From NCBI GenBank assembly GCA_963817955.1, contig CAWFQK010000003.1, forward strand, positions 192,001 through 256,000: a DNA stretch of 64,000 nt, in the 5' to 3' direction. The notes beneath the pieces were generated by a model that worked only from the letters and a program-made list of their open reading frames with translations, was not told the DNA's origin and made no database searches. Positions 5,255 through 63,815 of this stretch are shown one piece after another; the stretch's first letter is position 1, and the number at the start of each line of letters is the position of its first letter. The position numbers and the translations under genes were made by a program. This DNA comes from an uncultured Gemmatimonadaceae bacterium (GTDB lineage: Bacteria; Gemmatimonadota; Gemmatimonadetes; Gemmatimonadales; Gemmatimonadaceae).

Positions 5255-5261
5255 ACCTCTA

Positions 5262-9482: not shown

Positions 9483-10529
9483 TCAAGCACCGAACGCCGT
9501 TCTGAGCTCCTCGTTCAGAAATTCGCAGGCCCGCCACTCCGCATAGTAGATCGGGTGCCAGGGCCATCGTCCCGCGACGAATCCGACGTGCCCGCCATGC
9601 TCAGAGAACTCCGGCACGAGGCAGCTGTTGTGATCGGCAATCGCACGAACTTCGTCGAGCACTTCGGCGGGCAGGAACGGATCGTCTACGGCGCTGAGCA
9701 GCAGCGTTGGCCGAGCAATACGAGCGAGCCAGTGGAGGGAGCTGGAGCGCGTGTAGTAGTCATCTGCGTCGGCAAAGCCGTGCACGGGAGCCGTCACAGC
9801 GTCGTCGAAATCGTAGACCGATCGAGCGCGCTCGAGGGCAGCGCGGTCAAACAGGCCCGGATACCGCTCCAGCTTGGCGAGCGCCTTCTTGCGTAGTGAT
9901 CGCAAGAAATGCCGGTCATAGACGCGGGCGAATCCATGTGAGATGAATCGGCAGCCGCGCTCGAGATCAAAGGGTACAGATATGGCCGCCGCGGCTCGCA
10001 CACGGCTCGATAATGCGCGTCCCTGCTCCCCGAGATACTTGAGCAGCACGTTGCCACCGAGCGATACGCCGGCGAGCAGGACCGGCGCAGATGGATCTTC
10101 CGCCAGGATTCGATCGAGCACGAACGCGGGATCGGTGGTCTCACCCGAGTGGTAGAAACGCGGTGTCCGATTTGGCTCCTCACCGCACCCGCGAAAGACG
10201 AGGAGGTCGGCTGCCCAGCCGCGCCGTTTAGCTTCATTGAAGAAGCCGCCGACGTAATGCGATCTGATGGTGCCCTCGAGCCCATGGAGCAGGAGCAGTC
10301 GCGGCGCACCCCTTGGCGCGTCGAGGCGGTGGAGATCGACGAAATCGCCGTCCGGCGTGTCCCATCGCTCCCGGCGTGTTGGGACGAGCGGACGCGGACG
10401 GAAGAACTTGCCCCACAGGGTCTGCACATGAGCACCCCGTACCCACCATGCGGGGCTATAGGTATACTCGCTTTGGCGATGTGATGACACGAAAGGCTGA
10501 TTCCCCGGCGAATGGTGGCCGGCAATCAA
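9483..10529 (-). CDS. YheT-family alpha/beta hydrolase
   Basis: HVQT, LHGLEG, GVSLGG, DDPF and GGHVGF motifs; start uncertain. Confidence 0.88.
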   Translation of the reverse strand: MIAGHHSPGNQPFVSSHRQSEYTYSPAWWVRGAHVQTLWGKFFRPRPLVPTRRERWDTPDGDFVDLHRLDAPRGAPRLLLLHGLEGTIRSHYVGGFFNEAKRRGWAADLLVFRGCGEEPNRTPRFYHSGETTDPAFVLDRILAEDPSAPVLLAGVSLGGNVLLKYLGEQGRALSSRVRAAAAISVPFDLERGCRFISHGFARVYDRHFLRSLRKKALAKLERYPGLFDRAALERARSVYDFDDAVTAPVHGFADADDYYTRSSSLHWLARIARPTLLLSAVDDPFLPAEVLDEVRAIADHNSCLVPEFSEHGGHVGFVAGRWPWHPIYYAEWRACEFLNEELRTAFGA

Positions 10530-37123: not shown

Positions 37124-37285
37124 CACGTTGCGGTAGGCACAACCGAGCCGGACCGTGTGGCGGGGCTCCGCGTCCAGCGAAGCTCCGCCACTGATCGCCG
37201 ATCAGCGAACTGTCAAGCGCGGCCCGGACATTGCAACCGCGAAATACGGGTTGCGGATGTGAGGATGGTTGTGAGGGAGACAAAC

Positions 37286-38002
37286 ATGGGATTCACGCGG
37301 CTGACCGACAGCGAGCGTGAAGCGCTCGCGGCGTACGCGGCACGCGCGTCATGGCCTGCCGGTTTCGCGATCTACCAGCGCGGGGCCGCCGCCGATGGCG
37401 TATTCGTGGTGACCGGCGGCCGTGTCGTGCTGCGGAGCCGAGTACGCGCAGGTCGCGGATTCGTTCCATGGATCGCGATGCCCGGTGAGACCTTTGGGTC
37501 CGAAGGGCTGTCGCAGAACAACCGCTATGCCACGGACGCGCGCGCTGATGAGGAAAGTGAAACTTTGTTTCTCAGTGCCGCACGCTTCCGAGCGTTCGTG
37601 CGCGAGCAGCCGCAACATTCGCTCACCCTGATCAACCAGCTGATGGCGGAGCGGACGGCGCTGCTCGACAGACTCCGTGAGCTCACCACGTTGAGCGTCG
37701 AGCAGCGGCTCGTCGCGACGCTCGTTCGCATGGCCGACCACGACATCTTCACGTGCGAGGATGGTCGGGTCACGCTCTGTGCCACGCGCTACCGGCTGTT
37801 GTGCGAGCTGGTCGGCGCCACGCGTGAGTCGGTGTCTCTGGTGCTCGGGCGGCTGACAGGCGAAGGGCTGGTCGAGCGAAAGGGCACGACGCTGATCATT
37901 GCCCGGCCGGCGCAGCTTGTCGAGCGCATGGAGCTCGGGGCACTCGATAACGAGCTGCAATTTCCGGCGATCGCCGACGGAGCCGAGCAGGCGCTCCAGT
38001 AG
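37286..38002 (+). CDS. Crp/Fnr family transcriptional regulator
   Basis: cNMP-binding PGETFG, SVEQRL, HTH GATRESVS; GAGGGAG RBS. Confidence 0.9.
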   Translation: MGFTRLTDSEREALAAYAARASWPAGFAIYQRGAAADGVFVVTGGRVVLRSRVRAGRGFVPWIAMPGETFGSEGLSQNNRYATDARADEESETLFLSAARFRAFVREQPQHSLTLINQLMAERTALLDRLRELTTLSVEQRLVATLVRMADHDIFTCEDGRVTLCATRYRLLCELVGATRESVSLVLGRLTGEGLVERKGTTLIIARPAQLVERMELGALDNELQFPAIADGAEQALQ

Positions 38003-48485: not shown

Positions 48486-48497
48486 GCGGTTCTCCTT

Positions 48498-48640
48498 GGG
48501 ACACGGGACACGGCGACGAGACACGGGAGACGAGTTGCCTTACTGTTCGGAGTTGGTGGCGGGGATGACTCGGTATCCGTTAGCAAAATGTATTCGGGCG
48601 CATTCGTTCGCGTGTCCCGTGTCTCATGTCTCGTGTCTCA
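48498..48640. repeat. Inverted pair of degenerate GACACG(G/A) heptamer arrays
   Basis: gggacacgggacacgg...gagacacgggagacgag (48498-48534) and cgtgtcccgtgtctcatgtctcgtgtctca (48611-48640). Confidence 0.75.
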
Positions 48641-48642
48641 AA

Positions 48643-49806
48643 ATGACCAGCCGCTCTCGAATCACTCGCTTGGAGTCGGCGCCAAGCGTCGACGGTAGCC
48701 AGCTCCGCGCCACGGCGGCGGGCACCGCGCAATACTGCAGGCGTTTCCTGTCGCGGTTCTCTCCGGACTATTTCAGAGCGACCACCTTCGGGGTGACGGT
48801 TTCGTCGATCGGTCTCGGAACCTATCTCGGCGAGAGCAATGCCCAGGACGACGCTGCGTACGACGCTGCGATCGGGCGCGCCATTGAGTCGGGGATCAAC
48901 ATCATCGACTCGGCGATCAACTATCGCTGCCAGCGGTCGGAACGTGCGGTGGGCGCAGCACTTCAGCGTGTCTTTGCCGCCGGAACCCTGTCCAGGCAAG
49001 AGCTCGTCGTGTGCAGCAAGGGCGGATACATCCCGCTGGACGGCAATCCGCCCGCCACACGAGAAGCATACCAGGCCTACGTGCGGCGGGAGTTCGTGGA
49101 TCCGGAAATTCTGCATGCCGACGACATCGTCGCCGGCGGGCACTCCCTGGCTCCGCGCTTCCTGCGCTATTGTCTGGCGAAGAGTCGCCAGAACCTGGGG
49201 CTCCGGACGATCGACGTCTACTACATCCACAACCCCGGCCAGCAACTGGTCAGCGTAGCCCCAGAAGACCTCCGCGAACGCATCCGCGGCGCCTTCACGG
49301 TGATGGAAGAGGCGGCGGGACGTGGCGAGATTGGGGTGTATGGTTGCGCCACATGGGACTCACTCCGGGTGCCACCGGGCGAGAAGGCGCACCTGTCACT
49401 CGAAGACCTGGTGGAGTTGGCGCGCCAGGCAGCGGGGGGCGCTGACCACCACTTCCGGGTAGTCCAGCTACCGATCAACCTGGCGATGGTCGAGGCGGTT
49501 CGAGTGCCGACGCAGAAGCTTGGCGACAGGATGGTGACGGTGCTCGAGGCAGCGACGGAGCTGGGATTGACAGTGGTCGCGAGTGCGGCGCTGATGCAGG
49601 CCCGTCTCGCCAGTGGACTACCGGACCAGCTTCGGGAGGCTTTTCCCGATTGCATGACGGACGCACAGCGGGCAATCCAGTTCACGCGGACGCTGCCGGG
49701 TGTGACGACAGCGCTCGTCGGGGCGAAACAGGCCGATCACGTCGATGAGGACATTCGCTCAGCGCGAGTGACGGAAGAGGCGCCTCATTCGTCATATCGG
49801 GCGTAA
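48643..49806 (+). CDS. Aldo/keto reductase family protein
   Basis: SSIGLGT, NIIDSA.NY, SE, CSKGG and IDVYYIHNP motifs. Confidence 0.88.
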   Translation: MTSRSRITRLESAPSVDGSQLRATAAGTAQYCRRFLSRFSPDYFRATTFGVTVSSIGLGTYLGESNAQDDAAYDAAIGRAIESGINIIDSAINYRCQRSERAVGAALQRVFAAGTLSRQELVVCSKGGYIPLDGNPPATREAYQAYVRREFVDPEILHADDIVAGGHSLAPRFLRYCLAKSRQNLGLRTIDVYYIHNPGQQLVSVAPEDLRERIRGAFTVMEEAAGRGEIGVYGCATWDSLRVPPGEKAHLSLEDLVELARQAAGGADHHFRVVQLPINLAMVEAVRVPTQKLGDRMVTVLEAATELGLTVVASAALMQARLASGLPDQLREAFPDCMTDAQRAIQFTRTLPGVTTALVGAKQADHVDEDIRSARVTEEAPHSSYRA

Positions 49807-49859
49807 GACCTTATGGCGTATTGGGTTGGCGTGTGCGCCACCCTGCTCGTCGTACGCCG

Positions 49860-49914
49860 CGTTACACTAGTCGGTCCAGGTGTAACGGCTGGATAATGGT
49901 GTAGCCATTACTAT
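49860..49914 (+). promoter_or_regulatory. Direct-repeat activator motif, copy C, with -10-like TACTAT
   Basis: GTTAC(49861), GTAACGGC(49882), ATAAT(49893), TACTAT(49909); aligns with the copies at 60526 and 60675. Confidence 0.6.
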
Positions 49915-49987
49915 GCGCCCTGTTCCCGTGCCTTCGTCGGGCCTAACGCGGCGATGACGTCGCGAACGTAACATTGAATAGGTGACC

Positions 49988-50668
49988 ATGATGCTGAAGA
50001 CTATGACTCCCGCGCGCCGCCGCGCTGGTTTCACACTGATCGAGACCATCGTCACGGTGGGTCTCATCGCGGTGCTCGCCGCCTTCGTGATTCCATCGGT
50101 CATTCAAAAGGCCGGCGCGGGCGATCCGGTCAAGGTTCAGAACGACCTGAACACGGTTCGGACGGCAATCGAGACCTTCGCCACCGACACCAAGGCAGGA
50201 TTTCCACATCAAATATCGTTGTTGACCTCCAAGCCAGTCGCGGCGACCGATCACCTCATCGACAGCACCCTGATTACCAGCGGACAGGTGTCGCTCTGGA
50301 ACGGTCCATACCTTGGGGCGACGATCTCTTCGACAGTCAAGGACAGCATCGCCACTGGCTATACGGCGTACATCCGCAATTTCATCGACCGCTACGACAT
50401 CGTGAATAATGCCGCGGCTCACGATACGCTGGGTGTAGTCAATGTGGCATTTTCGGCGACGAGCACGCTCTTCGCAGCAATACGCATCGACGGACTGACC
50501 GTCGCGCAGGCAAAGGCGATGAACACGTTGTTCGACGGCGCAAACGACGCGAACCTGGGGGACGGATCGAATACGACCGGCCGGTTCCGCTTCCTCGCTC
50601 CGGCGCTGACGGGTCCTCAAGCCAACCAAGTCGTCGCCTACTATATGGCTGCACCGATCACCCAATAG
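49988..50668 (+). CDS. Prepilin-type (GspG-like) pilin 1
   Basis: RRRAG/FTLIE plus hydrophobic helix; WNGPYL; NTLFDG; several possible starts (49982-50003). Confidence 0.88.
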   Translation: MMLKTMTPARRRAGFTLIETIVTVGLIAVLAAFVIPSVIQKAGAGDPVKVQNDLNTVRTAIETFATDTKAGFPHQISLLTSKPVAATDHLIDSTLITSGQVSLWNGPYLGATISSTVKDSIATGYTAYIRNFIDRYDIVNNAAAHDTLGVVNVAFSATSTLFAAIRIDGLTVAQAKAMNTLFDGANDANLGDGSNTTGRFRFLAPALTGPQANQVVAYYMAAPITQ

Positions 50669-50677: not shown

Positions 50678-51394
50678 ATGGTCAGCGAGCTGCAGGACAG
50701 CATGGTCGACATGCGCGCGTTGCGCCAGCGGCGTGGCTTTACCCTCATCGAGACGATCGTCACGGTAGGACTGATTTCCGTGATGGCGGCGTTCGTCGTG
50801 CCCTCTGTACTCAAGAAGGCCGATGCCGCAGATCCGGTGAAGGTGGCGACCGATCTGAACTCCATCTCAACGGCTATCCAGTCGTTCGCGTCAGACGTCA
50901 AGGGTGCTTTGCCTGGGGATCTCGAAGATCTCACCGATCCGTTGATGACCAACGGGACGTGCAACACGATCAATCCGTGCGATTCCACGGTTACGCACGT
51001 CAACATCTTCACGGTTGCGCAGGCGGCGCTCTGGCGTGGACCGTACTTGCAGGCGTCGATTGGTCCGAGCCCAGATGCGGCGATTCGTAGCGGATATGTG
51101 GCAGATATCCACAATACCCTGGTGCGCTACGATGCCACGAGCGGGGTGCCAGAGTGGTGTTCCGGCATCGGAACACAGCTCGTCCCTTGCGCTGGATTCA
51201 TCGTGACGAATCCACTGTACGTAGCGGTGCGGGTGGACAGTCTCAATCTTGCCCAGGCGCTGATCGTCAACAACATCATCGACGGACCAAACGAGGCGCA
51301 GCCAGGCTTGCAGGGACGCTTCCGGTTCCCCACGCCAGCGTCGCCAACGGCTTTGGCGACACCGGCTTACTTCCTGGCTACGCCGGTGCCGTAA
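50678..51394 (+). CDS. Prepilin-type (GspG-like) pilin 2
   Basis: QRRG/FTLIE; WRGPYL; two Cys pairs; NNIIDG. Confidence 0.88.
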   Translation: MVSELQDSMVDMRALRQRRGFTLIETIVTVGLISVMAAFVVPSVLKKADAADPVKVATDLNSISTAIQSFASDVKGALPGDLEDLTDPLMTNGTCNTINPCDSTVTHVNIFTVAQAALWRGPYLQASIGPSPDAAIRSGYVADIHNTLVRYDATSGVPEWCSGIGTQLVPCAGFIVTNPLYVAVRVDSLNLAQALIVNNIIDGPNEAQPGLQGRFRFPTPASPTALATPAYFLATPVP

Positions 51395-51531: not shown

Positions 51532-51725
51532 TAGCCTGGTGGGAATGCTTTTGGCACCGATGTAGGTGCAGCACGAAGTTCGATCGCGCGTGGCAACGCT
51601 GGCCGCGCGTTGGGCAAATCAAATTTGTGACATGGATGGCGGCGCGAATCTTGTGTTCGTTGCCGATGTGTTCGCGCTGTTTCGGCACTCTGCCGTGAAG
51701 TATTTCTTTGGACGAGACCTCGACG

Positions 51726-54700
51726 ATGATCTCTCTCCGGTCGTTCGCTTCCTCTACGGTTCTTGCGTGCGCTGCGCTGCTGGTCGCAGGCTGTACGGAC
51801 GGCCCAATGGGCCCCCTGAGCGCAACGCGTCAGGCGGGCAAGGCGAATTTCGACGGGAAGGTCGGTAGCACTGGCAATTCCGCCAAGAACGGCTCGATCG
51901 ACGTGCGCGTGCTGCTCGACAAGAGCGGCGGCGCGGTGCTCGAGATCCGTACCGGCACCTTTGACGACGCCACGAATACCGGAACGCCTAACGGCTACTT
52001 CCAGAATGTTCAGTACAAGGTGTATGACGGGTCAAAGAAGCAGGTGCAGGTAGAGAACGTCAAATTCAAGACCGACGGAACCACCAAATACGTCACGTCG
52101 ATCAACCTCTGCTCCACGAATGAAGATGAGGAGTACGACGACCACAACCACGACCACGACCACGACCACGACCGCGACCACAACCATGAGAATCGCACGC
52201 CGTCGTGCGCAAAGACGTTCGGCGCCGGCTGGACCGTGTCTGTCCAGGCGAATCTCAAGGGCGTCGGCGGCGACGACAAGAAGACCGACGTTGTTCGCGT
52301 CGATGGAACGCCGGTGTATCTCCCCGACGTCGACCTGACCAAACAGGGCATTTACGTTGTTGGCGCCGACGGATCGCAGTCGCCCGCATCGCAGGTGACA
52401 CCTGGCGTGGCAACGACGTACTCCGTCACGATTCCCAACAACAAGCCTGTGCTTGGCTTGCCGAACAGCGTTGGCGTCGTCACGACGTGCGCCGTGTCCG
52501 TCGATGGCATCACGCAATTCGCACTGCCAACGTCAGGTTTCGGCAAAAGCTCCAATCCGAACCTGTTCAGCTATGTCGGCAGCGGCACGCAGACGATCGC
52601 CGGTGGAGCGAGCGCCCCCTGCCAGTTCACGCTGACATTGTCAGCCGGCAAGCACACCGTCAAGGTGACCGCAGTCGTTCTGTATCCCGGCGATTACGAT
52701 AGTTTGAACAACAGCACTCAGGCGATCACCGTCACGGCGGTCTCCGGGTCGCCGGACATCGCGGCCGGCGTGCTGCAGGCCGACATCGGGAACGGACAAG
52801 TACAGACTCTCGACAAGACGATTTACGCGGGTCAGTCGCTCAACCTCGACCAATGGGTGTCGCTCGTCAGCGGCGCTCCGCCGGGAACCGTGACGTGCAC
52901 CCTGACGATCACCAATACCGCCACGAACGCCGTTACGACGGCGAGCGGCTCCGTGGCACTGACGTCGGGCGATGCCAAGGCTTGCGCGATTCCGTACAGC
53001 TTTGCAGCGGCAGGCACGTACTCGGTGACCAGCGTCGTCATGCCCCCGTCCGGCGTGACCGATCCAGTCCTTGCCAACAATACCGCGACGAATACGGTCA
53101 CGGTGAGCGTGGCTGTCGCATCGGCGAATGTCGTCGTCAGCAGCCTCGCGTTCACGGACGCCGCGGTGAACGCGACGACGCAAGTATTCTCGCCGTCATC
53201 AAATCCAGCGGCAGACACCATTCATTCTGGCGACGTCGTCACGTACGCGGCGACGGTCAGCGCGAGCAACTTCCTGAACGCCACGTCGGTCCCGTCAGTC
53301 ACCTGCACGGCAACGGACAACGGAACCGACATCACCAAGTCCGTTACGTGGATCAAGCAGGCGGTGGCGAGCTTGGGGACGAGCGCCCAATCGTGCAGCT
53401 TCCAGTACACGATCACCGAGAGCGACGTGAATTCGTCGCACCCGCATACGATCGGCGTGTCGGTCTCGACCGGGAATTTCACCAATACCGCGACGACCAA
53501 CGCGACCGGCACGGGAACGGTCACGATTCCGGCGGTTTCCCCGCAGGCTGCGGTCGTCGTAAGCCAGCTGTCGTTCACGGATGCAGCCGAGCACATCACG
53601 TCGCGCGCCTTCTCGCCCACCGCCGATCCAACGGCGGATACCGTACACTCGGGTGACGTGGCCAGGTACGAGGCAACGATCAGCGCCACGGGCTTCCGAA
53701 ATGCTACGGCCGTGCCGGTGACGTGTTCTGCAACGGTGGATGGAGTGAGCGTCACGTCCGGTTGGGTTACGCAGACGATCAGTCTTGGTACGACGCCGCA
53801 AGTGTGCAGCTTTACGCGCGCGATCACTGAGACTGACAATCTGATGCACCCGCACAACATCCAGTTCTTCGTCACGACCGGCACGTTCGTGAACACGGCG
53901 AAACCGGCAGATACGAGCCGGCTCGGTGTGATCAATGACTACCGACGCGTGGATGTTTCGGTGGGCGCGCTTCAGTTGCTCAATGCGAGCGGCAACCCGA
54001 TCGATCTTTCAAAGAACGGTGTGCAGCAAGGCGCGACGGTAACGTTGCAGGTTCCGATCACGAATCTCGATCCGACGACGGCAACGTCGGTGAACTGCGG
54101 TATCCTCTCGAACGACACCGGCGCCCCTATTACCACATTCGCGTTGCCGTCTGCGGACATCGTGGCGAGCTCGCTCAGGCCGGTGACGCTCACCACCACC
54201 GCCATCACTCTGGCGGCGAATGGCACCGGCGTATGCCAGTACAGCGTTACGGCACCGACCGACCAAGGCCTGATTTCAATCCCGCTGGTTGCGTTGGTGA
54301 CGTCCACGACGGATAGTCCGCCCGATCCCGATCCCCGGAACAACGCATCGTTCGGTAGCCTGACCGTCGTCAGCAGCGGCGCGTTCACGAATGTGGCCGG
54401 CGGCGTCTTCAGCCTGGCGCAGGAGTGGACAAATCCGTTCACCCCGGCGTCTGATTGGCCGGTGGTTGGCACGCTCGACAACCAGAACTTTAAGGCGTCT
54501 CAGCTCTCACTGCTGGTCGTGCCGACGAAAAATATTCTGGGAACGTTCGCGCTGAGCGGAACAGTGATTAGTGGCCCAGCCACTGCACCCGTCACGTTCG
54601 GCACCGGGACGCTTCCGGCGGCCGAGCTTCGTGCTTCGACCGGACCGGGCGATACGCCGTGCATCACCATCGGACCGTTGGCTCCGCTCGGCAACGCCGG

Positions 54701-55019
54701 CGAGCCAGAAATCAAGTATTTCGCACAGGTCTGCGCGACGCAGGCGCCTCAGGACGGTTTCCAGGCGATCTTTGTGAACTACTCCCAGTCGATGCAAGGG
54801 CCGCTGGCGCCGACTCCGACCACCCTGTTCTTCACGAATTCGGTTGTGATGAAGATCCGGCTTGATTTCACGCTTACAGGCAGCACCATTGCGGATAAGG
54901 TCACCGCTACTATTACCGTGCCGGTGATTACGCTAGCCGATAATTGCGGCCCCAACCAGGGTGGGACCGCAAATGCATGTTCGACCACCTTCGGAGCCCC
55001 CACGGTTTCGACCCCGTAA
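51726..55019 (+). CDS. Large Thr/Ser-rich lipoprotein with ~5 Ig/CARDB-like repeats (putative adhesin)
   Basis: Lipobox LVAGC; repeated TC...C.F beta-sandwich units, several ending in D...NN; His-Asp loop. Confidence 0.75.
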   Translation: MISLRSFASSTVLACAALLVAGCTDGPMGPLSATRQAGKANFDGKVGSTGNSAKNGSIDVRVLLDKSGGAVLEIRTGTFDDATNTGTPNGYFQNVQYKVYDGSKKQVQVENVKFKTDGTTKYVTSINLCSTNEDEEYDDHNHDHDHDHDRDHNHENRTPSCAKTFGAGWTVSVQANLKGVGGDDKKTDVVRVDGTPVYLPDVDLTKQGIYVVGADGSQSPASQVTPGVATTYSVTIPNNKPVLGLPNSVGVVTTCAVSVDGITQFALPTSGFGKSSNPNLFSYVGSGTQTIAGGASAPCQFTLTLSAGKHTVKVTAVVLYPGDYDSLNNSTQAITVTAVSGSPDIAAGVLQADIGNGQVQTLDKTIYAGQSLNLDQWVSLVSGAPPGTVTCTLTITNTATNAVTTASGSVALTSGDAKACAIPYSFAAAGTYSVTSVVMPPSGVTDPVLANNTATNTVTVSVAVASANVVVSSLAFTDAAVNATTQVFSPSSNPAADTIHSGDVVTYAATVSASNFLNATSVPSVTCTATDNGTDITKSVTWIKQAVASLGTSAQSCSFQYTITESDVNSSHPHTIGVSVSTGNFTNTATTNATGTGTVTIPAVSPQAAVVVSQLSFTDAAEHITSRAFSPTADPTADTVHSGDVARYEATISATGFRNATAVPVTCSATVDGVSVTSGWVTQTISLGTTPQVCSFTRAITETDNLMHPHNIQFFVTTGTFVNTAKPADTSRLGVINDYRRVDVSVGALQLLNASGNPIDLSKNGVQQGATVTLQVPITNLDPTTATSVNCGILSNDTGAPITTFALPSADIVASSLRPVTLTTTAITLAANGTGVCQYSVTAPTDQGLISIPLVALVTSTTDSPPDPDPRNNASFGSLTVVSSGAFTNVAGGVFSLAQEWTNPFTPASDWPVVGTLDNQNFKASQLSLLVVPTKNILGTFALSGTVISGPATAPVTFGTGTLPAAELRASTGPGDTPCITIGPLAPLGNAGEPEIKYFAQVCATQAPQDGFQAIFVNYSQSMQGPLAPTPTTLFFTNSVVMKIRLDFTLTGSTIADKVTATITVPVITLADNCGPNQGGTANACSTTFGAPTVSTP

Positions 55020-55038
55020 GCTGCGCCGCGCACTTCGT

Positions 55039-55079
55039 AACGCGCCATCGACTCGGATCGTCTGAGTGATGGCGCGTTT
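55039..55079 (+). terminator. Stem-loop after the lipoprotein gene
   Basis: AACGCGCCATC/GATGGCGCGTT and ACTCGGA/TCTGAGT arms; only a short T run. Confidence 0.5.
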
Positions 55080-55104
55080 CGCGTTCCGTACCCGCGTGTA
55101 CATC

Positions 55105-55732
55105 ATGAAGCGTTCTCATCGACTTGGTCGCGGCTTCACCCTGATGGAGGTTGCTGTCGCCGCCGCCATCTTGGCGATGCTTGCCGCGGTAACGTCTCCG
55201 TACCTCGTTGAGTTCATCGACAAGCAGCAGGCCCAAACGACCGCAGACAAGCTCGCGGCGCTCGCCGCAGGCGTGGCTGCCTTCGAGAACAATGTGCACT
55301 CCGGCGCCGCCGCCACGGCTCTGACGTATCCTGGACGCATTGGCGAACTGGCAAACGCCATCACTGCCTCGAACGCGTCATACCGTAATAGTTGTGGGGT
55401 TAACTTCAACGCGACTGCCGTCACGGGCTGGAATAGCTTTGGCCCATTCGTAACGTTCTACGTCGACAGCACCAACGGCTACAGCACGCCGCTTGGCATG
55501 GTGAGTGATGCAATGGTCCGCAATCCGACCACCGCGAACGGCAGCAGCACGGGCGCCGGCACGTTGGCCCTTCGCATGATTGCGATCGACTCTTCCGATG
55601 CCGTCGATCTCGATCTCATCGTTGACGGTGGCGATGGCGGTGCCTCAGGTGTCCTCCGCTACACCATCGGCACGACGACGGCACATATGGCCGACGTGTC
55701 GTATTTCATTCCGGTCGCGGACCAAGTGCTGA
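55105..55732 (+). CDS. Prepilin-type pilin 3 (fused in frame to pilin 4 as given; probable true end ...ADKC* at 55732)
   Basis: LGRG/FTLME; DLIVDG; AAG TGC TGA in the +1 frame at 55724-55732. Confidence 0.75.
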
Positions 55733-56295
55733 AACGCCGCCGCGCACAACAGGGCTTTACGCTCGCCGAAGTGCTCGTGGCCTTCGTGTTGATTGGCGTG
55801 CTCGCGGCCGTCATCGTTCCCACCGTTCGCGGCCGGCTGCAGTCGGGCTACGAGAGCGCCATCATCTCGGAATTCACCAACCTGTCGTCCGCCATCACCG
55901 CGTATCGTCAGGACGTCGGCAAATACCCACCCAGTCTCGATTATCTGTCGGCTCTCCGGACGCCGACGCCGTTAGATCGGTGCGGCATCGCGCTCAGCGC
56001 GAATGCGATTGCCTCGTGGCGCGGACCCTATACCACGCGCACCATTCCGATCGTCGGTGGCGGCGGCGGCTACATGTTCGCGTCAAAGGACACCATCGCC
56101 GATCTCATGTCAGTGAGCACCGCGCCAGTCGGCTTTTCGATCACGCTCAAGGGCCCCGACACGCTCACCGCTCACAACGTCGATCTTCAAGTGGATGGCG
56201 TCGCCAACGCGACCGCCGGCAATCTGCAGTGGACGGTCAACGGGGCGGACGTCTGGATCAACTACATCATTGCCACAAAATCCGGAGCCTGTTGA
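55726..56295 (+). CDS. Prepilin-type (GspG-like) pilin 4
   Basis: GTG start, KRRRAQQG/FTLAE; D.GKYP; WRGPY; DLQVDG; ends in Cys. Confidence 0.82.
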   Translation: MLKRRRAQQGFTLAEVLVAFVLIGVLAAVIVPTVRGRLQSGYESAIISEFTNLSSAITAYRQDVGKYPPSLDYLSALRTPTPLDRCGIALSANAIASWRGPYTTRTIPIVGGGGGYMFASKDTIADLMSVSTAPVGFSITLKGPDTLTAHNVDLQVDGVANATAGNLQWTVNGADVWINYIIATKSGAC

Positions 56296-56298: not shown

Positions 56299-59200
56299 TC
56301 AGCGCCGGACGGCGCGCCCCGGAAGCTCTACCAGCAAGTCCGAAAGCGCGACAGTGCTTCCCGTAGCTCGCCCGCCAAGCCACAATTGCGCGGGCGTTGC
56401 CATTTCATCGCCAAGAAACTTGAGTGAAGAACGCCAGCGCACCTGACCATCCACTGAGAACGTCACGACTTGGTCGCCTCCGATCGTGATCTCGACCGTG
56501 TGGCTGTCGGCTGGACGGAACAGAGATACGGGCTCCGACGAAGTCTGCTGGCCCACCGAGTACATGAGAACGCCAGCCGCGCCGTCCCAGCTCACTGCGG
56601 CCATGGGCGCAAATCGCGGCGCCGCCCGATCGATCGCCGTCACATCGGCCAGCGGCACGAGTGCCATTGTTGCCGTGGCCGCCGACGGACGCCCGCTGAA
56701 TGGCGCAAACAGACGGGCGCGCACGTGCAGTCCGGAACGCAACTCGAGGCCTGGACGCAAGAGAACGCCGCTTTCCCATTCCATGTCGCCGTTCGGATAG
56801 ACCGCCCGCTTCGCCGAGCCGGCGATGACGCCCACGTACGGGAGTGGTGCGCCGAGCGGCAGCCACTGCGCACTCACGGTGCTGCCTATGAATTCATCGG
56901 TGATGTGAAGCCGCTCCGTCGATGTCACCGCGAGCGTGAGTGTGTCGGCGCGCCAACCAGGAAGCAATGCGACGACACGAACGTTGCCTACGGCGCGCCC
57001 GACGACTTTCAATCCGGCGGTGTTTCCCGTCCCCGGCGCCGAGTCGCTCAATGCAATTATGCCTGGGTCGAGCACCTTCCAGTCAGCAATCGTTCCGCTG
57101 ACGAGCGCTCCCGCAACGGAAACGGTGAATGCGGTCAGCCGCACCGTATCTCCCACGCCGAGCGCTGCGCTGCCGAGGACCCGGACGCGGTCGATGTACA
57201 CGCGCGCGGCCCCATCCCACCGTGCGATGCCGAACTGCCGGCCCGGCGGCGTGACACGGCGGGGTGATCCACCGAGCGTCGGCCGAACGTAGATCCCCAG
57301 ATCGCCATCTCGCACCGACTGGAATGCGAGCATGCGGCCATCGGGCGAGAACACCGCACCATCGTCGCCATTCCGATCGGAGACGGGCCACAGTCGCGCA
57401 TTGTCGAAATCGTATACGTAAAGACGCGGTCCGCCATTCCGTGTGCTCGTGAACACGAGCATCGAACCATCCGGCGACCAATTGATGTTGTAGTCATCAG
57501 CTGGATTAGCACTCAGGTTTCGTTGCTCCGAACCATCCGGTCTGCTGACGAACACGTCGCGCTGCCTCCCGGAGGTGGAGCGGGCCACCCACGCCACCCA
57601 TAAACCTGTCGGCGACCAGCGTGCTTCCGTCACGGTACGCGATGCAGACGTGTCGATTGGAACGAGCACATTGCGTTGGTCAATCGACGCGCGAAACAGA
57701 TCGGTGTCGAAGCTCCCGTCGTCGAGCGTGCGCGACCGGGACACCAGCAGCGACCTGCTGTCCGGCGACCAGGCGAGTGCCGTATTGTCTCCGGGGCCTG
57801 CCGCTATGATCAGTGTGTCATGCCGATCGGCGGACAAGACATACACCTCCCGTCCGCGAGTGGTAACCCGCTCGAGCGCGACGCGTTGGCGATCGGGAGC
57901 GACGATTGGTGCGAGCCAGGGTGCGCCGAGCGAATCAATCCATTGCAGCCCGGCGGCGTTCGTCGGAATCGGGACGAGCACACTGGCTCCCCGAAGCGCC
58001 CCAACGTCGGCGCGCAACTGATTCTGTCCGCGCGCGTCGCGCTCCGACACGATCAAGGTATCAGCCACGCTGCCCGCGGCCATTCGCGTGGTGACGGCGC
58101 GGCGAAAAGCCATACCGGCGAGGAACACGACGATCGAAATCGCGATTGCGCGAGCCCATTGCGCCCGAGTGGCCCTTTTCCGGACGGCGAAGGGAATGTG
58201 CGCGGTGGCGGACGTCGACGGCTCCGCTGTCTGCGCTGGCAAGTCGAGTGGCTCGACCACAACGTCAGGTTCGCTCGCCTCGACGGTCTCGACCGCCGGC
58301 GCCGCAGCCGCCTCCTCAGGCGACGGCAGGGCGAGTCGGCCGCCTCCAAACGCGACCAGCAGAGCGTCAATGTCCTGGCGTGCCGCGGCGTTCGGCGCAA
58401 AGGTCAGCGCGATGCCGAGTAGGCGCACGACCTCTGGAGAAGCTCCCATTGATGCCGCGGTGAACGCAGCCTTTCGTGCATGCGCGAACGCCTCGCGCGA
58501 TCTGCCGGCAACAGCGTAGAGCGCCGCGAGCTCAGAGTCGGTGCAATCCGGCTCTGCCGCGAGGGCATCCCCTGCCCACCCTGCGAGCAATGCTCGTCCC
58601 GCCAGTCCGCTGCCGTCCACGAGAAAAGACGTCGTCGAGTCGTGCGACACGACGTAACCATCGGATATCGCGCGCAGCAGTCCGACGCGCGTCAGGTCCT
58701 CCACGGCGTCAAAGGTCGCGCTCTCCGGAAGATGCGCCGCGGCAGCGAGCAAACGCAGCGAGGCGGTACGCTCAAAGAGAGACGCAGCAAAAAACACGCG
58801 TCGCTGTGAAGGCGACGCGCCTTGAAGTCGCGCCCACAACATGTCGCGCATCGATGCAGGAAGATCACTGGCTCCCTGACCAGCCGCCGCGCGCCGCGCC
58901 AGCTCGATGGCCGTGACCGGAACGCCCCGCGAAGCGTGGGCAATCCGCTCGACGTCAACCGCCGTGCGCGTTGCCTCTGGAAGCTGCTCGCGCACGAGCG
59001 TCGTCGTCTCGTCATGGGACAGCGGACCAAGCTCGATCCGGGTGTCGGGGCTCTGTTCATCGACCGTCGCCAGCTCGCGCAACCGTTCGATGGTTTGCTG
59101 TGCGCTTCGATCGGGACTGTAGGCGACGACAAATAGAATGGGCGAGTCGTGCAGACGGTGCGACAGATACGTCAACAGGTCGAGCGTCGAGCTGGATGCA

Positions 59201-60462
59201 TGCTGAGCGTCGTCGAGTAGCACGCAGAGCGGACGTTCGTACGCGGCGGCGTCGGTCAGCGCAGCGATGCCCTCGAAGAAGCGAATACGTCCGGCCTCGT
59301 CCTCCACTGCCGGCGCGTTCGGCAAATCGAACGAGTCTCGGAGCTCCGGCAGGAGCCGCGCGGCCTCCGCGAGCAAGTGCCGGCTTGCACCAGATATCCC
59401 CGACGCACGCACCAAGGGCCGGAGTGCTTCAGCGATGCTTGCATAGGGAAGGGCGCCCCCGGTCGTGGCCTCGTGGCCGCGAAGGACCTGCACTCCGCCA
59501 AGGCTGCGCACCCGATCGGCAAATTCGTCGAATAGGCGCGACTTGCCCATGCCCGGATCGCCCTCTACGAGAACCGTAGCTCCCTTTTCGGATCGCAGGC
59601 GCGTGAGCCGCGCGAGCATGCGTGAGATTTCGGATTCCCGTCCCACGAACGTGGCGACCTTGCGACCGTTGGCGGCGACTTCCGCCTGGGCGCGTGGCGT
59701 GTCTTTAGGGTTCCGCCGCTCGAGCCGCTCGATGATGGCGCGGATATTCGACGGAACCGGAAGGTCCAGCTCTTCCTTCAGGCGGGCCGCGTAGGCCTTG
59801 GCAGCTGCGAGCGCGTTGGCATGGCGTCCCGCAGTGACGAGCGTATTGACCTGAAAGACGGCCGCTTCCCCGTCGAATGGCGCCATGGTCGTGAGCCGCT
59901 CGGCGAGCTGGATGGCGTCGCGAATCCGGCCCGAAGCGACTGCCTGTTCACCGGCCGCAAGGAGGGCTTCCTCGAAATGCGACCGAAGACGCACTCGCTC
60001 GGCGTCTGCCCAGCGGTCGAAAGCCGACTCTCCCACCTCAAACGCCTCGAGGAATTCGCCGCCGTATGCGGCGATGGCGTCGTCCCACCGCCCGTCCTCG
60101 AACGCAGCAACAAAGACGTCGCGATCGGTGGCAAGTCCACAGTTTGGTGCAATGGCGACGTCGTCACGGTGTTGCGGGAGCACCTCGTCGCCCAATGCGG
60201 TGCGCAGGCGGTGGAGAGACTGGCGGAAGGCGTTGCGTGCCTTTTCTTCCGGGATCTCGCCCCAGAGAATGCTGATCAGCTCGTCGCGCCGGGATCGGCC
60301 GCGTACCGCGATGTATGCCAGCATTGCCAGAGACTTGCCTGGACCGAGTCCGGGCAGCGCCCGTCCGTCCTGCGCGGCGATGGCGGGCGAGCCGAGAAGC
60401 CGCAAGGAGTAGCGGGGTGGCTCGTTGGATGGTGGGTCTTGCGGCTGGATTGGCGGCGTCAC
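56299..60462 (-). CDS. SARP/BTAD transcriptional activator fused to AAA (STAND) ATPase, TM helix, PD40 beta-propeller, Ig-like and lectin-like domains
   Basis: LRLLG..RDELISILW..RQSLHRLR; W...ER BTAD; FVGRE, GDPGMGKS, LDDAQ; TM AIAISIVVFLAGMAF; WSPD repeats. Confidence 0.85.
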   Translation of the reverse strand: MTPPIQPQDPPSNEPPRYSLRLLGSPAIAAQDGRALPGLGPGKSLAMLAYIAVRGRSRRDELISILWGEIPEEKARNAFRQSLHRLRTALGDEVLPQHRDDVAIAPNCGLATDRDVFVAAFEDGRWDDAIAAYGGEFLEAFEVGESAFDRWADAERVRLRSHFEEALLAAGEQAVASGRIRDAIQLAERLTTMAPFDGEAAVFQVNTLVTAGRHANALAAAKAYAARLKEELDLPVPSNIRAIIERLERRNPKDTPRAQAEVAANGRKVATFVGRESEISRMLARLTRLRSEKGATVLVEGDPGMGKSRLFDEFADRVRSLGGVQVLRGHEATTGGALPYASIAEALRPLVRASGISGASRHLLAEAARLLPELRDSFDLPNAPAVEDEAGRIRFFEGIAALTDAAAYERPLCVLLDDAQHASSSTLDLLTYLSHRLHDSPILFVVAYSPDRSAQQTIERLRELATVDEQSPDTRIELGPLSHDETTTLVREQLPEATRTAVDVERIAHASRGVPVTAIELARRAAAGQGASDLPASMRDMLWARLQGASPSQRRVFFAASLFERTASLRLLAAAAHLPESATFDAVEDLTRVGLLRAISDGYVVSHDSTTSFLVDGSGLAGRALLAGWAGDALAAEPDCTDSELAALYAVAGRSREAFAHARKAAFTAASMGASPEVVRLLGIALTFAPNAAARQDIDALLVAFGGGRLALPSPEEAAAAPAVETVEASEPDVVVEPLDLPAQTAEPSTSATAHIPFAVRKRATRAQWARAIAISIVVFLAGMAFRRAVTTRMAAGSVADTLIVSERDARGQNQLRADVGALRGASVLVPIPTNAAGLQWIDSLGAPWLAPIVAPDRQRVALERVTTRGREVYVLSADRHDTLIIAAGPGDNTALAWSPDSRSLLVSRSRTLDDGSFDTDLFRASIDQRNVLVPIDTSASRTVTEARWSPTGLWVAWVARSTSGRQRDVFVSRPDGSEQRNLSANPADDYNINWSPDGSMLVFTSTRNGGPRLYVYDFDNARLWPVSDRNGDDGAVFSPDGRMLAFQSVRDGDLGIYVRPTLGGSPRRVTPPGRQFGIARWDGAARVYIDRVRVLGSAALGVGDTVRLTAFTVSVAGALVSGTIADWKVLDPGIIALSDSAPGTGNTAGLKVVGRAVGNVRVVALLPGWRADTLTLAVTSTERLHITDEFIGSTVSAQWLPLGAPLPYVGVIAGSAKRAVYPNGDMEWESGVLLRPGLELRSGLHVRARLFAPFSGRPSAATATMALVPLADVTAIDRAAPRFAPMAAVSWDGAAGVLMYSVGQQTSSEPVSLFRPADSHTVEITIGGDQVVTFSVDGQVRWRSSLKFLGDEMATPAQLWLGGRATGSTVALSDLLVELPGRAVRR

Positions 60463-60525
60463 GCGTCAGTTGATGAAGACTAGACGTAAAGTCGTAAACG
60501 AAACCACAACAGCATCTTGCGAGGC

Positions 60526-60579
60526 CGTAACACGCGAAAGGACAGGAGTAACGGCCAGCTAACGGTCGGGGGCGATAAT
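60526..60579 (+). promoter_or_regulatory. Direct-repeat activator motif, copy A, with -10-like GATAAT
   Basis: GTAAC(60527), GTAACGGC(60548), CTAAC(60559), GATAAT(60574). Confidence 0.65.
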
Positions 60580-60674: not shown

Positions 60675-60728
60675 CGTAACACGGCAGCCGTGAGCAGTAA
60701 CGGCGGCGTAACCCTGCACTCGTATGTT
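60675..60728 (+). promoter_or_regulatory. Direct-repeat activator motif, copy B, with -10-like TATGTT
   Basis: GTAAC(60676), GTAACGGC(60697), GTAAC(60708), TATGTT(60723). Confidence 0.65.
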
Positions 60729-60772: not shown

Positions 60773-61362
60773 ATGAACCTTCGACGCAGAAGCACGAGAC
60801 GGAAGACCGGATTTACCCTGCCGGAAATCATCGTCACCATCTCGCTGATCGCGGCACTCGCGGCGGTTGTGGTGCCGACGGTGATCAGTCAGGTGAAGAA
60901 GGGAGATCCATCTCGTATCGGGAATGATTTCCTCGCCGTGCGCGGCGCGTCGGAGCAGTTCCTGACCGACATACGGAAATACCCGAGTTCGATGTATCAA
61001 CTCACGAACGTCATCACGACGTCGCAAACGGGGCTCGTGGGTACGTCGATCGCGAACTATGGGCAGGCCGAAGTGAACCGCTGGCGCGGGCCGTATCTGA
61101 ATAAGGACAGCGCGGCCGCACGCATCACCGGCTACGGGCTGACAGATGAACATCAACTTCGATACGGTGTCGCTGGCTTCGAGCGGCGCTGCGAGCGCGG
61201 CGGGACAGAAGTATATGGTCATTGCGATTCCGATGACCGACTCGCTCTGCTGCTCTCGAGGTGGACCGCCAGTTCGACGACGGCGTGTTACTGACCGGTG
61301 CAATCCGGTATTTGAAAGGGGCGACAGACACGCTGAAATTTTTATTGATGCCTATTTACTGA
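60773..61362 (+). CDS. Prepilin-type pilin 5, interrupted by two +1 frameshifts (~61144, ~61248)
   Basis: RRKTG/FTLPE; WRGPYL; the reconstructed tail ALEVDRQFDDG...LKFLLMPIY* matches its paralogs. Confidence 0.75.
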
Positions 61363-61441
61363 GCCGATTGCGGCTCTGATGGACTTTTCGATTCCCCGCA
61401 GCAGGCAGTTCGTTCCCTACTCGACCCTTAGGAGAAGACAG

Positions 61442-62033
61442 ATGAAGAAGAACGTTCGTCGCGGCTTTACGCTGCCTGAGATCTTGGTGACGGTGACGGT
61501 AGTGGCGGTGCTCGCCGCCGTGGTCGTGCCGGCGGTGACGCAGTATGTGAGCAAGGGCGACGTCGCCAGCGACCCTGTCGGACATCCAGCAGGTACGCAA
61601 TGCGATTACGGCCTATATTGCGGATACACGTGTTAATCCCCACGTACTTTTACGATCTGACGTCGACCAGTAATGGCGTCACGGGGTACAAGGGTTCGTA
61701 TCTGGCCGCCACGCTTACTGGGGTAACTGGGGCGGGCACGTTCACGAGCGCGGGACTCGGAATCAAATTTGGTCCGAGTCTGGACGCTGATTAATACCAC
61801 CGGGGTACTTGACTACTTCGCTCAAGTTCCCGGATAACACTAAGTGCTCAGTTCTCTTCGCCCTGGACCAGGCGATTGATGGCGCCGGTGGCGTCACCTC
61901 CTCGGCGACGTCAGGGACCACGGCAACCACCGGTTCCCTCGTCTGGAGTGCCACCAATACCTGTAACACCAATCCAAACGGCACGATAACCGGCACTGAT
62001 GTCACGCTCAAACTTGTGGCGATCGGAACCTGA
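61442..62033 (+). CDS. Prepilin-type pilin 6, interrupted by 3-4 frameshifts (~61568, ~61641, 61783-61805)
   Basis: AGGAG RBS; VRRG/FTLPE; YKGSYL; tail C..LFALDQAIDG...C. Confidence 0.72.
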
Positions 62034-62107: not shown

Positions 62108-63815
62108 CTACTTGCCAATAATGATATGTCCAATCGCCATGATCCGTATTGGAAGGTGCTGACGCTCCAACTCAGGTTTTGTGACTACATGCACCGAGAC
62201 ATGTCGCGCTTTCATTGAGTCCACGAAGTTCCGCGGCAGCTGGTCCGCATTGAAGATCTTCGGCACGTCGCGCAAGAACGGATCGTTTCGCAGTAGCTGG
62301 CGTCCCCACATCACCTGATCTGACGGAAATACGACGGCGTCTGCCCGCAGCGACGCCATCCACTCGTAGCCGCGCCGGTACGGTCCAACGATGCGCTCGA
62401 CGCCATTTGCGCGCAGCGGGATCTGCGCCACGATCGTGATACCGACCGAGGCCAACACCAGTCTGGCGGCACGACGCCAGCCAACCGCGCGCGCCAGCAA
62501 CTCGGCGCCGATAGCGGCCAACAACGCCAGGTTGCCGAGCCCATCATACATGTATCTGTAGCCCCAACCCTCGCCTTGCAAAGGGCTAAGAAAGGTCCGT
62601 GCGATTACGATGAATAGCAGTGACGCAGCAGCATCGCGTGAAAACGTGTCGAGCCGCCGCCACCGGATTATCGCCGCCACAGCGAGAATCGTCACGATCA
62701 ATCCATTCCAGCTCGGGAATAAGTGCGAGGTCCATGGCTGAAGTCAAACGGACTTCGGCAGCCGGGATCGAAAACAGGTGAGCCGCGACGCCGGCCGTCG
62801 CGCTGGGAGACGCAAAGGTCGATGAACCTGGCGACGAGAGTCCCTGCATGTACCCATACCAGTACGAAAGCCCCAACAGGTACACGGCAGCGACGTATCC
62901 GAACACCGCGAACCGCTTGTCGCGCAAATACCGCAGGATAAAGACCGCCGCAAACAGACCATGCGGAAACGGACTGTGGACGCCAAGCGCAATCACGCCG
63001 ACCCATGGCAGCAATAGCAGGCTGGTGCGCCGGTTGTCGACGTACAACCAGAGCCAGACGAGCGACACGAGCAGGTGTGTCGGCATCGAGAAGAAGGTCA
63101 TCGACATGAACATGACCTGCGTCGATGTCGCGAAGAACAGCGCCGCCAAGTAGGCGCGCGCCGGCCGATCGGGCCACACCTTTCTCGCGATCGATGCCAC
63201 GAGGCAAAGCGATAGTGCCGCAATGACGGGTCCACCGAGCCGTCCAACGCCAGCGGCAATGAACGGCGCGTTGATGAGCGAGTGGAGCGGCAAGAAGCCC
63301 AATCGCCAGGTACAATCGGCTCCGGCAACGATCGACGTCGGCGTCAATGCGTTGATGTAAGGGCACCACGCTGCGGGAACCGTCGCAAAGGCGCGCCCCC
63401 GCGCGAATATCTGCGCTTGAAACCATGCCGAATACTCGTCATCGGCCAGCAGGTATCCGTGAAACACGAGCCGGATGCCCGCGTACACGACAACCAGCAA
63501 CGCGAGGGCGAGCAGGGCGATTCGCCACTGCTTGAATTCCCACTGTGGCACATCTCGCGGTATGTCGCTGTCGCCCGCTGCGGTCCTCAGAGTGAGCAGC
63601 ACCACGGCGGCAAAGGCCGCGACCAACAGCAATGCGGGCGCCTCTATCTTCACATACTGCTCAAAGAAGAGGCTGTACATCGTGTATTGCACGTTGTCGA
63701 CGACAGGGATGGCGAGAAGCCCTGCGCCTATAATGCCGAGCGTGCCGAAGCATGCCAGTCGAATAGCCGCGCGAGCAGACGGAACGTCCATCTGATCGCT
63801 GATTGGGACGGGCAT
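62108..63815 (-). CDS. Polytopic membrane glycosyltransferase (GT-C/ArnT-like), one frameshift at ~62716
   Basis: Many TM segments; ADDEYSAWFQAQIF acidic loop; GWGYRY; removing one base of the GGG at 62715-17 joins the two ORFs; GGAGG RBS. Confidence 0.65.

Follow-up and report, generated by a model that had tools for sequence, protein, structure and literature searches.

Which protein reads a three-part motif that recurs ahead of the prepilin genes of an uncultured bacterium of the Gemmatimonadaceae? The question arises from a stretch of 64,000 nucleotides of its genome (contig CAWFQK010000003.1, positions 192,001 to 256,000), which we call the window and in which we number positions from the first letter. 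A sequence-only reading of the window had singled out a string at 49859-49914, here named copy C, as the third copy of a motif that recurs 10.7 kb further right as copies A and B, and had suggested that both ends of a pilin locus are co-regulated; it named no regulator. Our sequence comparisons indicate that the motif, which lies upstream of pilin groups on both sides of a regulator gene, is real and is conserved in related genomes. The adjacent gene, which encodes a SARP-type protein, provides a specific candidate regulator, and by analogy with published promoters the architecture of the motif promoters appears to be that of a known family, the SARP-activated promoters.

Three boxes at fixed spacing ahead of prepilin genes

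Copy C is present exactly as first described. On the + strand (49861-49914) it reads GTTAC-N16-GTAACGGC-N3-ATAAT-N11-TACTAT, with successive start-to-start spacings of 21, 11 and 16 bp. Box 1 is GTTAC (49861-49865), and with its flank, as GCGTTAC, it is invariant in all five orthologous sequences. Box 2 is GTAACGGC (49882-49889), with a conserved core GTAACG at 49882-49887. Box 3 is ATAATG (49893-49898), a variant of the GTnACG box, of which TAATG is invariant in the window and in four orthologous loci (L001-L004). The -10-like hexamer TACTAT (49909-49914) starts 16 bp after the start of box 3. Copies A and B, also on the + strand, have spacings of 21, 11 and 15 bp. Copy A (60527-60579) consists of GTAAC at 60527, GTAAC at 60548, CTAAC at 60559 and the -10-like hexamer GATAAT at 60574-60579, and copy B (60676-60728) of GTAAC at 60676, 60697 and 60708 followed by the -10-like TATGTT at 60723-60728. 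Copy C does keep the 21+11 spacing that had been attributed to it, ahead of prepilin genes 1 and 2, and the one-base-pair difference in the offset of its -10-like hexamer (16 versus 15) is genuine; in the four orthologous sequences, TACnnT stands at offset 15.

The chance expectation of the gapped motif, which the sequence-only reading had proposed to compute across the genome, could be obtained for the window. The gapped pair GTWAC-N16-GTAAC, with at most one mismatch, has 8 strand-hits there against a shuffle mean of 1.65, and none of 100 shuffles reaches 8. The three-box pattern GTWAC-N16-GTAACG-N6-TAAY is matched only by copies A, B and C in the 64 kb, with a mean of 0.00 over 100 shuffles. 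We also used a weight matrix of 57 columns, trained on 29 sites none of which came from the window. Its three best matches in the window are copy B (37.5 bits), copy A (35.2) and copy C (18.5), while the maxima of 100 simulated windows had a mean of 8.5 (standard deviation 3.2) and a largest value of 17.8. Copy C clears this null only just, because its ATAAT third box and the 1-bp shift of its -10 are penalised. Copy C is a true third copy of the motif. A degenerate further copy at 49922-49976, between copy C and the pilin start codon, was considered and rejected; it scores 12.7 bits, within the range of the null.

Conservation of the motif was examined in 32 related loci from a scan of one genome per species, of which 30 are from Gemmatimonadota, one from Longimicrobiales and one from Anaerolineales. 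In the conserved gene order of these loci, a pilin pair is divergent from the regulator gene, and more prepilin genes lie downstream of the regulator on the opposite strand. Motif scans covered the 64-kb window and 482 kb of these loci (545,780 bp for the window and the 32 loci). When three GTNAC boxes were sought with at most 1 mismatch in 12 positions at 81 combinations of spacings, the combination (21,11) had 39 matches against a background of about 2 per spacing. The neighbouring combinations (21,12) and (22,11) had 11 and 10 matches, and the remaining 78 had 0-8 each. A prepilin GFTLxE motif follows within 300 bp on the same strand in 31 of the 39 matches, a situation for which about 2.5% of strand positions qualify.

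The consensus of the motif is (c)GTnAC(r)-N15-GTAACG-N5-GTnACG-N9-tAtntT. Among 31 sites, the TAA of box 2 is T in 31, A in 29 and A in 31, so that its centre is the A in 29/31, while box 1 has A at its centre in 15 sites, T in 8, C in 4 and G in 4. The hexamer that starts 15 bp after the start of box 3, with the consensus tAtntT, has its A in 29/31 and its T in 30/31 sites. The centre of box 2, the G that follows it and the A and T of the -10 had not been used in the motif search. No fourth box is found between boxes 1 and 2 in the 31 sites (mean 2.9-3.0 of 4 mismatches). The description of GTAACGGC as invariant has to be narrowed: only GTAACG is conserved, with the G at position 26 in 28/31 sites and positions 27-28 variable, and the GGC is not conserved. 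By itself the octamer is unremarkable, with 4 matches in the window against a shuffle mean of 1.55, a number that 5 of 100 shuffles reach.

In the alignment of copy C with L001-L004, GCGTTAC, GTAAC, TAATG and the T of the -10 are kept in 5/5 sequences at a mean column identity of 56%; the boxes are kept while spacers and flanks diverge. For copy A, aligned with L001-L005, the three boxes are invariant in 6/6 at a mean column identity of 51%. Between copies A and B we found no conserved small open reading frame (ORF) or structure; the alignment is unconserved there and the fold has a z-score of -1.75.

Motif copies flank the regulator gene across the family. On the side proximal to the regulator, a motif with at most one mismatch faces away from it within 480 bp in 24 of the 30 loci that have at least 120 bp of sequence upstream of the regulator, the window included; 2.5% of random 480-bp segments contain such a motif. 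The distal side, which corresponds to the position of copy C, could be followed for at least 7 kb downstream in 16 loci. In 12 of them (the window, L001-L004, L010, L013, L014, L016, L017, L022 and L023) a site stands ahead of the outermost prepilin gene, and L024 has one in addition. No such site is present in L008, L012, L015 and L019, of which L015 and L019 also have no prepilin gene at this place. Although L002 lacks the aldo/keto reductase gene that is the left neighbour of copy C in the window (48496-49806), it keeps copy C, and the motif therefore belongs to the pilin operon. From these patterns in the sequences, co-regulation of both ends of the locus would be the natural reading, as had been suggested.

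A weaker pair GTAAG/GTAAC at 55016/55037, which had been pointed out ahead of prepilin genes 3 and 4, did not withstand closer inspection. The GTAAG overlaps the TAA stop codon of an ORF of 1103 amino acids, the GTAAC (55037-55041) lies in the 5′ arm of a hairpin, and no three-box arrangement was seen, by reading, in the four regions orthologous to this pair.

A SARP-type regulator beside promoters of SARP-like layout

Between the two motif-bearing ends of the locus, on the - strand, lies a gene for a protein of 1387 amino acids (56299-60462). Its start is divergent from prepilin gene 5, and copies A and B are inside the 310-bp gap and face the pilin gene, with copy A 64 bp from the start codon of the regulator. 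The protein consists, in order, of a SARP region (residues 1-260), an AAA_16/STAND ATPase (271-445), a hydrophobic segment at about 770-790 that is single, strong and flanked by arginines, and a PD40/TolB-like propeller with a C-terminal region. Pfam BTAD matches residues 126-246 (E 8e-11) and Pfam AAA_16 residues 271-445 (E 1e-23), while Pfam Trans_reg_C is not detected in the regulator at E up to 1. The phmmer alignments with the SARP proteins EmbR (E 5e-6) and AfsR (E 2e-3) cover residues 14-257. An AlphaFold2 model of residues 1-260, made from an alignment of 30 sequences, has a pLDDT of 93 and a pTM of 0.85, and the six best PDB matches that Foldseek finds for it are all AfsR or EmbR (E 3e-10 to 6e-9, TM-score 0.66-0.74); the seventh drops to E 2e-3. 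By the BTAD match, the EmbR/AfsR alignment, the model and the Foldseek result, the N terminus is an OmpR-type DNA-binding domain joined to a bacterial transcriptional activator (BTA) domain, the combination by which a SARP is recognised. Large SARPs of the AfsR type have a NOD/STAND ATPase and a TPR region behind the SARP domain; in the regulator, no match to TPR is found outside the BTA region, and the hydrophobic segment and the PD40/TolB-like repeats are there instead.

The recognition helix, A75-R87, is invariant or nearly so in 30 homologues that share 37-59% identity overall, and nowhere else in the N-terminal domain is their conservation as high. There are 720 homologues of the regulator at E up to 1e-10 among the candidates scored, and all that bear an organism name are from Gemmatimonadota. 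Many carry the JGI label ‘DNA-binding SARP family transcriptional activator / Tol biopolymer transport system component’.

This protein is a candidate activator because the layout of repeats and -10 without an apparent -35 is the published layout of SARP promoters. According to PMC10936776, SARP promoters have direct repeats of which the 3′ one is 8 bp from the -10 and neighbours are 11 or 22 bp apart. The afs box of AfsR, as described there, spans -40 to -19, centred at -29.5, over a poor -35, and two SARP protomers side by side take over the contact with the -35. PMC10972967 describes SARP heptamers with spacers of 4-15 nucleotides that overlap the -35, and several sites with three repeats; heptamer spacers and three-repeat sites are also found in PMC3367932. 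In our motif, 21 and 11 bp separate the starts of successive boxes, a spacing with 39 matches against 0-11 at the 80 other spacings, and 8 bp separate the heptamer of box 3 (motif positions 32-38) from the predicted hexamer (47-52), or, in copy C, 9 bp. At the motif promoters we see no hexamer that resembles a -35. Positions 24-29 read ACGnnn in the eight commonest versions, covering 16 of the 31 sites, and the boxes would overlap the -35 region. A full sigma-70 consensus promoter (TTGACA-17-TATAAT) is likewise not found in the pilin intergenic regions.

By this analogy, we consider it probable (roughly 0.6) that the neighbouring SARP-type regulator binds the boxes and activates all three pilin promoters. 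A type IV filament (pilin) cluster would then have three promoters that depend on an activator, copy C among them, each with three GTnAC boxes on one helix face whose starts are 21 and 11 bp apart. For copy C, the position of TACTAT predicts a transcription start site near 49921, for copies A and B the predicted starts are near 60586 and 60735, and if transcription at the motif promoters is assumed to start 6-7 bp after the -10, the boxes would start near -59, -38 and -27. SARP domains of adjacent regulator protomers would cover the boxes, of which 2 and 3 would be the counterpart of the 22-bp afs box of AfsR, and the bound regulator would substitute for the missing -35 contact in the manner of AfsR (‘sigma adaptation’). 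We infer activation rather than repression in this scheme. The ATPase, the membrane helix and the periplasmic propeller could link activation of the pilin promoters to an envelope signal. A more specific picture, which we offer tentatively and hold to be doubtful, is that Gemmatimonadota possess a signalling protein of a kind not described before, which connects the envelope with gene expression. It would be an NLR-like (STAND) SARP anchored in the membrane, would sense a cue from the surface or envelope with its periplasmic TolB-type propeller, and would directly activate the three prepilin promoters by AfsR-like sigma adaptation at the GTnAC boxes. Through the regulator-proximal copy, the protein would in addition control its own gene by feedback.

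On the regulator side of copy A, about 15 bp outside its box 1, there is a further conserved element at about 60500-60516 (consensus AATAATGACAGnnnATT), in which ACAG is invariant in 6/6 sequences and which, read on the minus strand, may contain the -10 of a promoter for the regulator gene itself. In a subgroup of loci (L008-L011 and L017), the proximal copy reads GTGAC-N16/17-ATAAC-N6-GTCAC/GTGAC/GTAAC, and box 1 overlaps the probable start codon of the regulator (ATGTCAC; 1221-1227 in L009), an overlap that, as far as the sequences go, would fit autoregulation.

The comparison with AfsR of Streptomyces coelicolor (PDB 8hvr and 8k60) concerns both protein and DNA. Residues 1-260 of our regulator have the same SARP fold (TM-score 0.70-0.74), and, like AfsR, the regulator appears to be a large SARP with a STAND/NOD-type ATPase (AAA_16). 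The base-contacting R92 of AfsR aligns with R85, which is nearly invariant among the homologues. As in the afs box, there are two boxes 11 bp apart (here from about -38 to -21) with 8 bp between the 3′ box and the -10, and the -35 appears to be poor or lacking. The differences are that the host phylum is Gemmatimonadota here and Actinomycetota there, that the second base-contacting residue, T88, is replaced by Q81 and overall identity is only about 24%, and that the box is GTnAC(G) rather than the CGTT(T/C)ATCG given in PMC10972967. In addition, there is an extra third box here, two turns (21 bp) upstream, the regulator has a membrane segment and a periplasmic TolB-like propeller, and its proposed targets are prepilin genes, whereas that of AfsR is a regulator of antibiotic synthesis.

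The three-heptamer operators of other SARPs (ActII-ORF4, DnrI, FdmR1 and PimR) likewise have three repeats on one helix face. In the classical cases they overlap the -35, according to PMC10972967, and the PimR operator is intergenic and beside its own gene (PMC3367932), as the regulator-proximal copies are here. However, these operators have a spacing of 11+11 bp with 4-bp spacers, as opposed to 21+11 bp without any box between boxes 1 and 2, and the core of our motif is palindromic.

Several observations weigh against assigning the motif to this regulator. In the loci fetched, the regulator and the pilin genes are always together, so that the co-location of the motif with the one cannot be separated from its co-location with the other. 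The loci were retrieved by peptide patterns that included the recognition helix, whose invariance among them is therefore partly by construction; the 30-protein alignment cited above is free of this bias. The GTnAC core is its own reverse complement, and in copy C box 1 is inverted relative to box 2 (GCGTTAC...GTAACG), whereas SARP sites are described as direct repeats; nothing but the central base and the flanking letters gives the boxes their ‘direct’ orientation. The longer of the two spacings measures 21 bp and not 22 bp. The third box of copy C is ATAATG instead of GTnAC and, judged by its letters, could also serve as a -10 itself; more distant loci have GTnAC at this position. The predicted membrane anchoring of the regulator would be unusual for a SARP. 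Finally, 8 of the 39 (21,11) matches have no downstream prepilin gene, several of them being opposite-strand images of true sites or lying at contig ends, and 6 of the 30 loci have no match with at most one mismatch upstream of the regulator.

Other possible readers of the motif and other regulators of filament genes

Other proteins that might read the motif were sought among the scanned ORFs of the window and in seven related loci (L001, L010, L012, L014, L017, L019 and L022), in which 129 ORFs were called and 107 scanned, the other 22 being prepilin ORFs and two ORFs that were scanned separately. Besides the regulator, the DNA-binding proteins of the window are ParB, a cold-shock protein, a Crp-like protein (37157-38002) and one that is NrtR-like; its scanned ORFs include neither a LytTR regulator nor a response regulator of the OmpR type, and no sigma factor, ECF factors and sigma-70 domains included. 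The 107 ORFs contain no LytTR, OmpR-type response regulator, sigma-70 family or Crp-family domain, and no other transcription-factor family recurs in them (NrtR-like in 2 loci, cold-shock in 1, PAS histidine kinase in 2).

The motif could nevertheless be read by another transcription factor encoded elsewhere, of the LytTR (for example AlgR), OmpR/PhoB or CRP/FNR type, and the SARP-like protein would then have a different role. The predicted tie between motif and SARP protein is one of adjacency, which leaves room for such a factor. Boxes 2 and 3 resemble the 5-N6-5 layout of CRP-family sites, and a Crp-like gene is present in the window. That gene is 12 kb off, however, the family is missing from the 107 ORFs, and the box 2/3 pair is centred at about -30.5 and not at the class II position of -41.5 (PMC10936776). 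The case for a LytTR protein draws on the 21-bp period. In PMC4064291, LytTR sites are a pair of imperfect direct repeats, each 8-13 bp long and separated by about 12 bp, for a period of about 21 bp, and AlgR is described as activating a prepilin operon, fimU-pilVWXY1Y2E. The period fits, but a third box 11 bp further on and 8 bp before the -10 is foreign to this scheme, the boxes reach to about -21, unlike the promoter-proximal AgrA repeat, which is centred near -60 (PMC4227749), and neither the window nor the seven loci offer a LytTR or OmpR-type candidate among their scanned ORFs. We thus regard a reader encoded elsewhere as rather unlikely.

Other explanations would dispense with the three-box architecture. 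Copy C could be an operator in its own right, in which the inverted repeat GCGTTAC-N14-GTAACG binds a dimeric repressor or a class II activator, nATAAT at 49892-49897 is the -10 and transcription starts at about 49904, with a likeness to copies A and B that extends to a half-site only. The inverted repeat of boxes 1 and 2 is indeed perfect in copy C and its four orthologues, in which (A/G)TAATG is also invariant, within sequences (GATAAT, CATAAT, AATAAT) that look like a -10. Yet TACnnT at offset 15 or 16 is kept just as well (5/5), box 1 has the direct orientation, GTAAC, in 15/31 sites as well as in copies A and B, and distant loci (L010, L017 and others) have a distal GTnAC third box with a -10 at offset 15, so that one common architecture accounts for all copies and a separate operator is improbable. 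If boxes 1 and 2 are taken as -35 and -10, their short pentamer ending in AAC, 16-bp spacer and -10 containing GT resemble promoters of ECF-type sigma factors, in which -35 and -10 are about 16-17 bp apart and the sigma factor is often encoded close by. The 16-bp spacer fits, but the third box and the conserved A (29/31) and T (30/31) of the hexamer downstream would be left unexplained, the centre of box 1 is freely variable, and a sigma-70 family domain is found neither in the scanned ORFs of the window nor in the 107 ORFs; an ECF promoter is thus very unlikely. An element that acts as RNA would draw on the complementarity of GTTAC and GTAAC, both arms of which are paired as a leader hairpin in the minimum-free-energy fold. 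That fold is no better than those of shuffled sequences (z -1.0, with 30 of 200 shuffles equal), Rfam gives 0 matches at the gathering score across the whole window, copies A and B have a direct box 1, and the predicted -10 is downstream of the motif. Chance recurrence, for its part, is excluded by the spacing test, the association with prepilin genes and the three-box shuffle test, and we give almost no credence to either an RNA element or chance.

The proposed activation of the pilin promoters by the SARP-type protein can also be set beside other regulators of filament genes. The nearest precedent for a SARP-type protein affecting a pilin gene is GSU1771 of Geobacter sulfurreducens, a SARP-type protein outside the actinobacteria whose loss alters pilA expression (PMC10599522). 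As presented there, it consists of a receiver domain and a SARP region, without the ATPase, membrane segment and propeller found here, and is a global regulator that is not located in the cluster. FimS/AlgR of Pseudomonas aeruginosa resembles the proposed system in being a dedicated activator of a minor-prepilin operon that includes a large non-pilin protein, PilY1 (PMC4064291). In contrast to our regulator, AlgR has a LytTR DNA-binding domain and belongs to a two-component system, and its sites, CCGTTTGGC and CCCTCGGGC, are laid out differently. The make-up of the operon in the window, with a pilin pair, the 1103-residue ORF and another pilin pair, is like that of the fimU operon. Regulators of the ToxR/CadC type have an N-terminal cytoplasmic winged helix of the OmpR type, a single membrane helix and a periplasmic sensor, and bind DNA while anchored in the membrane. 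However, they are without a BTA domain and a STAND ATPase, and their cytoplasmic part is far shorter than the approximately 765 residues here.

To our knowledge, hardly any role of SARPs is known apart from the activation of antibiotic synthesis in actinomycetes. What is new here is the phylum, the sequence of the boxes, their 21+11 arrangement, the type IV filament genes as proposed targets and the membrane-spanning regulator that combines SARP, STAND and propeller parts. We found no description of this system in the Creative Commons full text of PMC or in bioRxiv, a coverage to which subscription journals do not belong. The SARP promoter rule and sigma adaptation were worked out in actinomycetes, and the same geometry stands here beside a regulator of SARP fold in a poorly studied phylum. 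The genes under its proposed control encode a surface filament, and the regulator has an unusual membrane-spanning sensor architecture. If a membrane-anchored SARP does act at these promoters, sigma adaptation by SARPs would not be an actinobacterial speciality, and a SARP could act from the membrane. The cis-element allows the regulon to be predicted in hundreds of soil Gemmatimonadota genomes.

Gene neighbourhood and further observations

The window has a G+C content of 63%. Downstream of copy C, on the + strand, are prepilin-type genes 1 and 2 (49982-50668 and 50678-51394), which match Pfam N_methyl and NCBIfam IV_pilin_GFxxxE. All six prepilin-type genes of the locus are above the cut-offs of Pfam N_methyl and NCBIfam TIGR02532, as expected of a prepilin N terminus in which a cleavage/methylation motif precedes a hydrophobic helix, while none of them scores above the threshold of an equivalog model (GspG, PilA and others). 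The ORF of 1103 amino acids follows between the pilin pairs (51708-55019, + strand). It has no match to a Pfam or NCBIfam family, and an atlas search gave a weak lead only (0.81, CARDB-type clusters). At its 3′ end, beyond the stop codon and ahead of prepilin gene 3, lies a conserved hairpin (55039-55078, + strand; -32.4 kcal/mol, z -4.7), which is found at the same place in L002, L003 and L004 (z -7.1, -5.6 and -4.7), and thus in all four sequences folded, the window included. A clear T-run stands behind the hairpin in L002 only. Within the operon, the hairpin may serve termination or attenuation, or may stabilise the mRNA.

Prepilin-type genes 3 and 4 (55066-56295, + strand) form one ORF of 409 amino acids in the window, with two N-terminal methylation motifs and no intervening stop codon, whereas in L001 and L002 they are separate genes that overlap by 7 nucleotides. 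Beyond the regulator, prepilin-type gene 5 is at 60773-61294 (+ strand). Prepilin-type gene 6 (MKKNVRRGFTLPE...; + strand) starts at 61443 in a region that extends to 62033 and is broken into three ORF pieces (61379-61636, 61600-61794 and 61809-62033), while its orthologues are single ORFs of about 190-200 amino acids; the split reflects either frameshifts or sequence errors. Within the same 2.5 kb there is a second broken gene, that of a membrane protein at 62108-63815 (- strand), which is split into overlapping ORFs at 62586-63815 and 62108-62701. The former matches residues 21-376 of a single L001 ORF of 577 amino acids with 59% identity.

In the seven loci whose ORFs were scanned, the pilin pair adjoins, on the upstream flank, genes for a T2SSE ATPase, the T2SSF platform protein, a secretin, AAA_22 (ExeA/MshM-like) and TPR proteins. 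By their gene content, these loci encode a complete type IV filament machinery, MSHA-like or like that of type II secretion systems, and the corresponding machinery genes of the window's genome would be expected beyond position 64000.

Three minor observations concern individual loci and the window as a whole. In L009 (290-1242), a pilin gene (393-998) has the same direction as the regulator and is flanked by inverted copies of the promoter region. The arms 290-396 and 1136-1242 are 84% complementary, and the arms 1062-1149 and 1155-1242, 5 nucleotides apart, are 91% complementary; the segment is either invertible or an assembly artefact, and L010, which is closely similar to L009, has the usual gene order. 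In L032, the locus from Anaerolineales, GTAACG-N6-GTAACG, with a 12-bp period, occurs at about 9950-10000 upstream of a homologue that is only 30% identical to the regulator, and may be there by chance. In the window itself, parB, parA and mnmG/gidA are found together at 3407-8125, and this grouping suggests that the window is near the chromosomal origin region.

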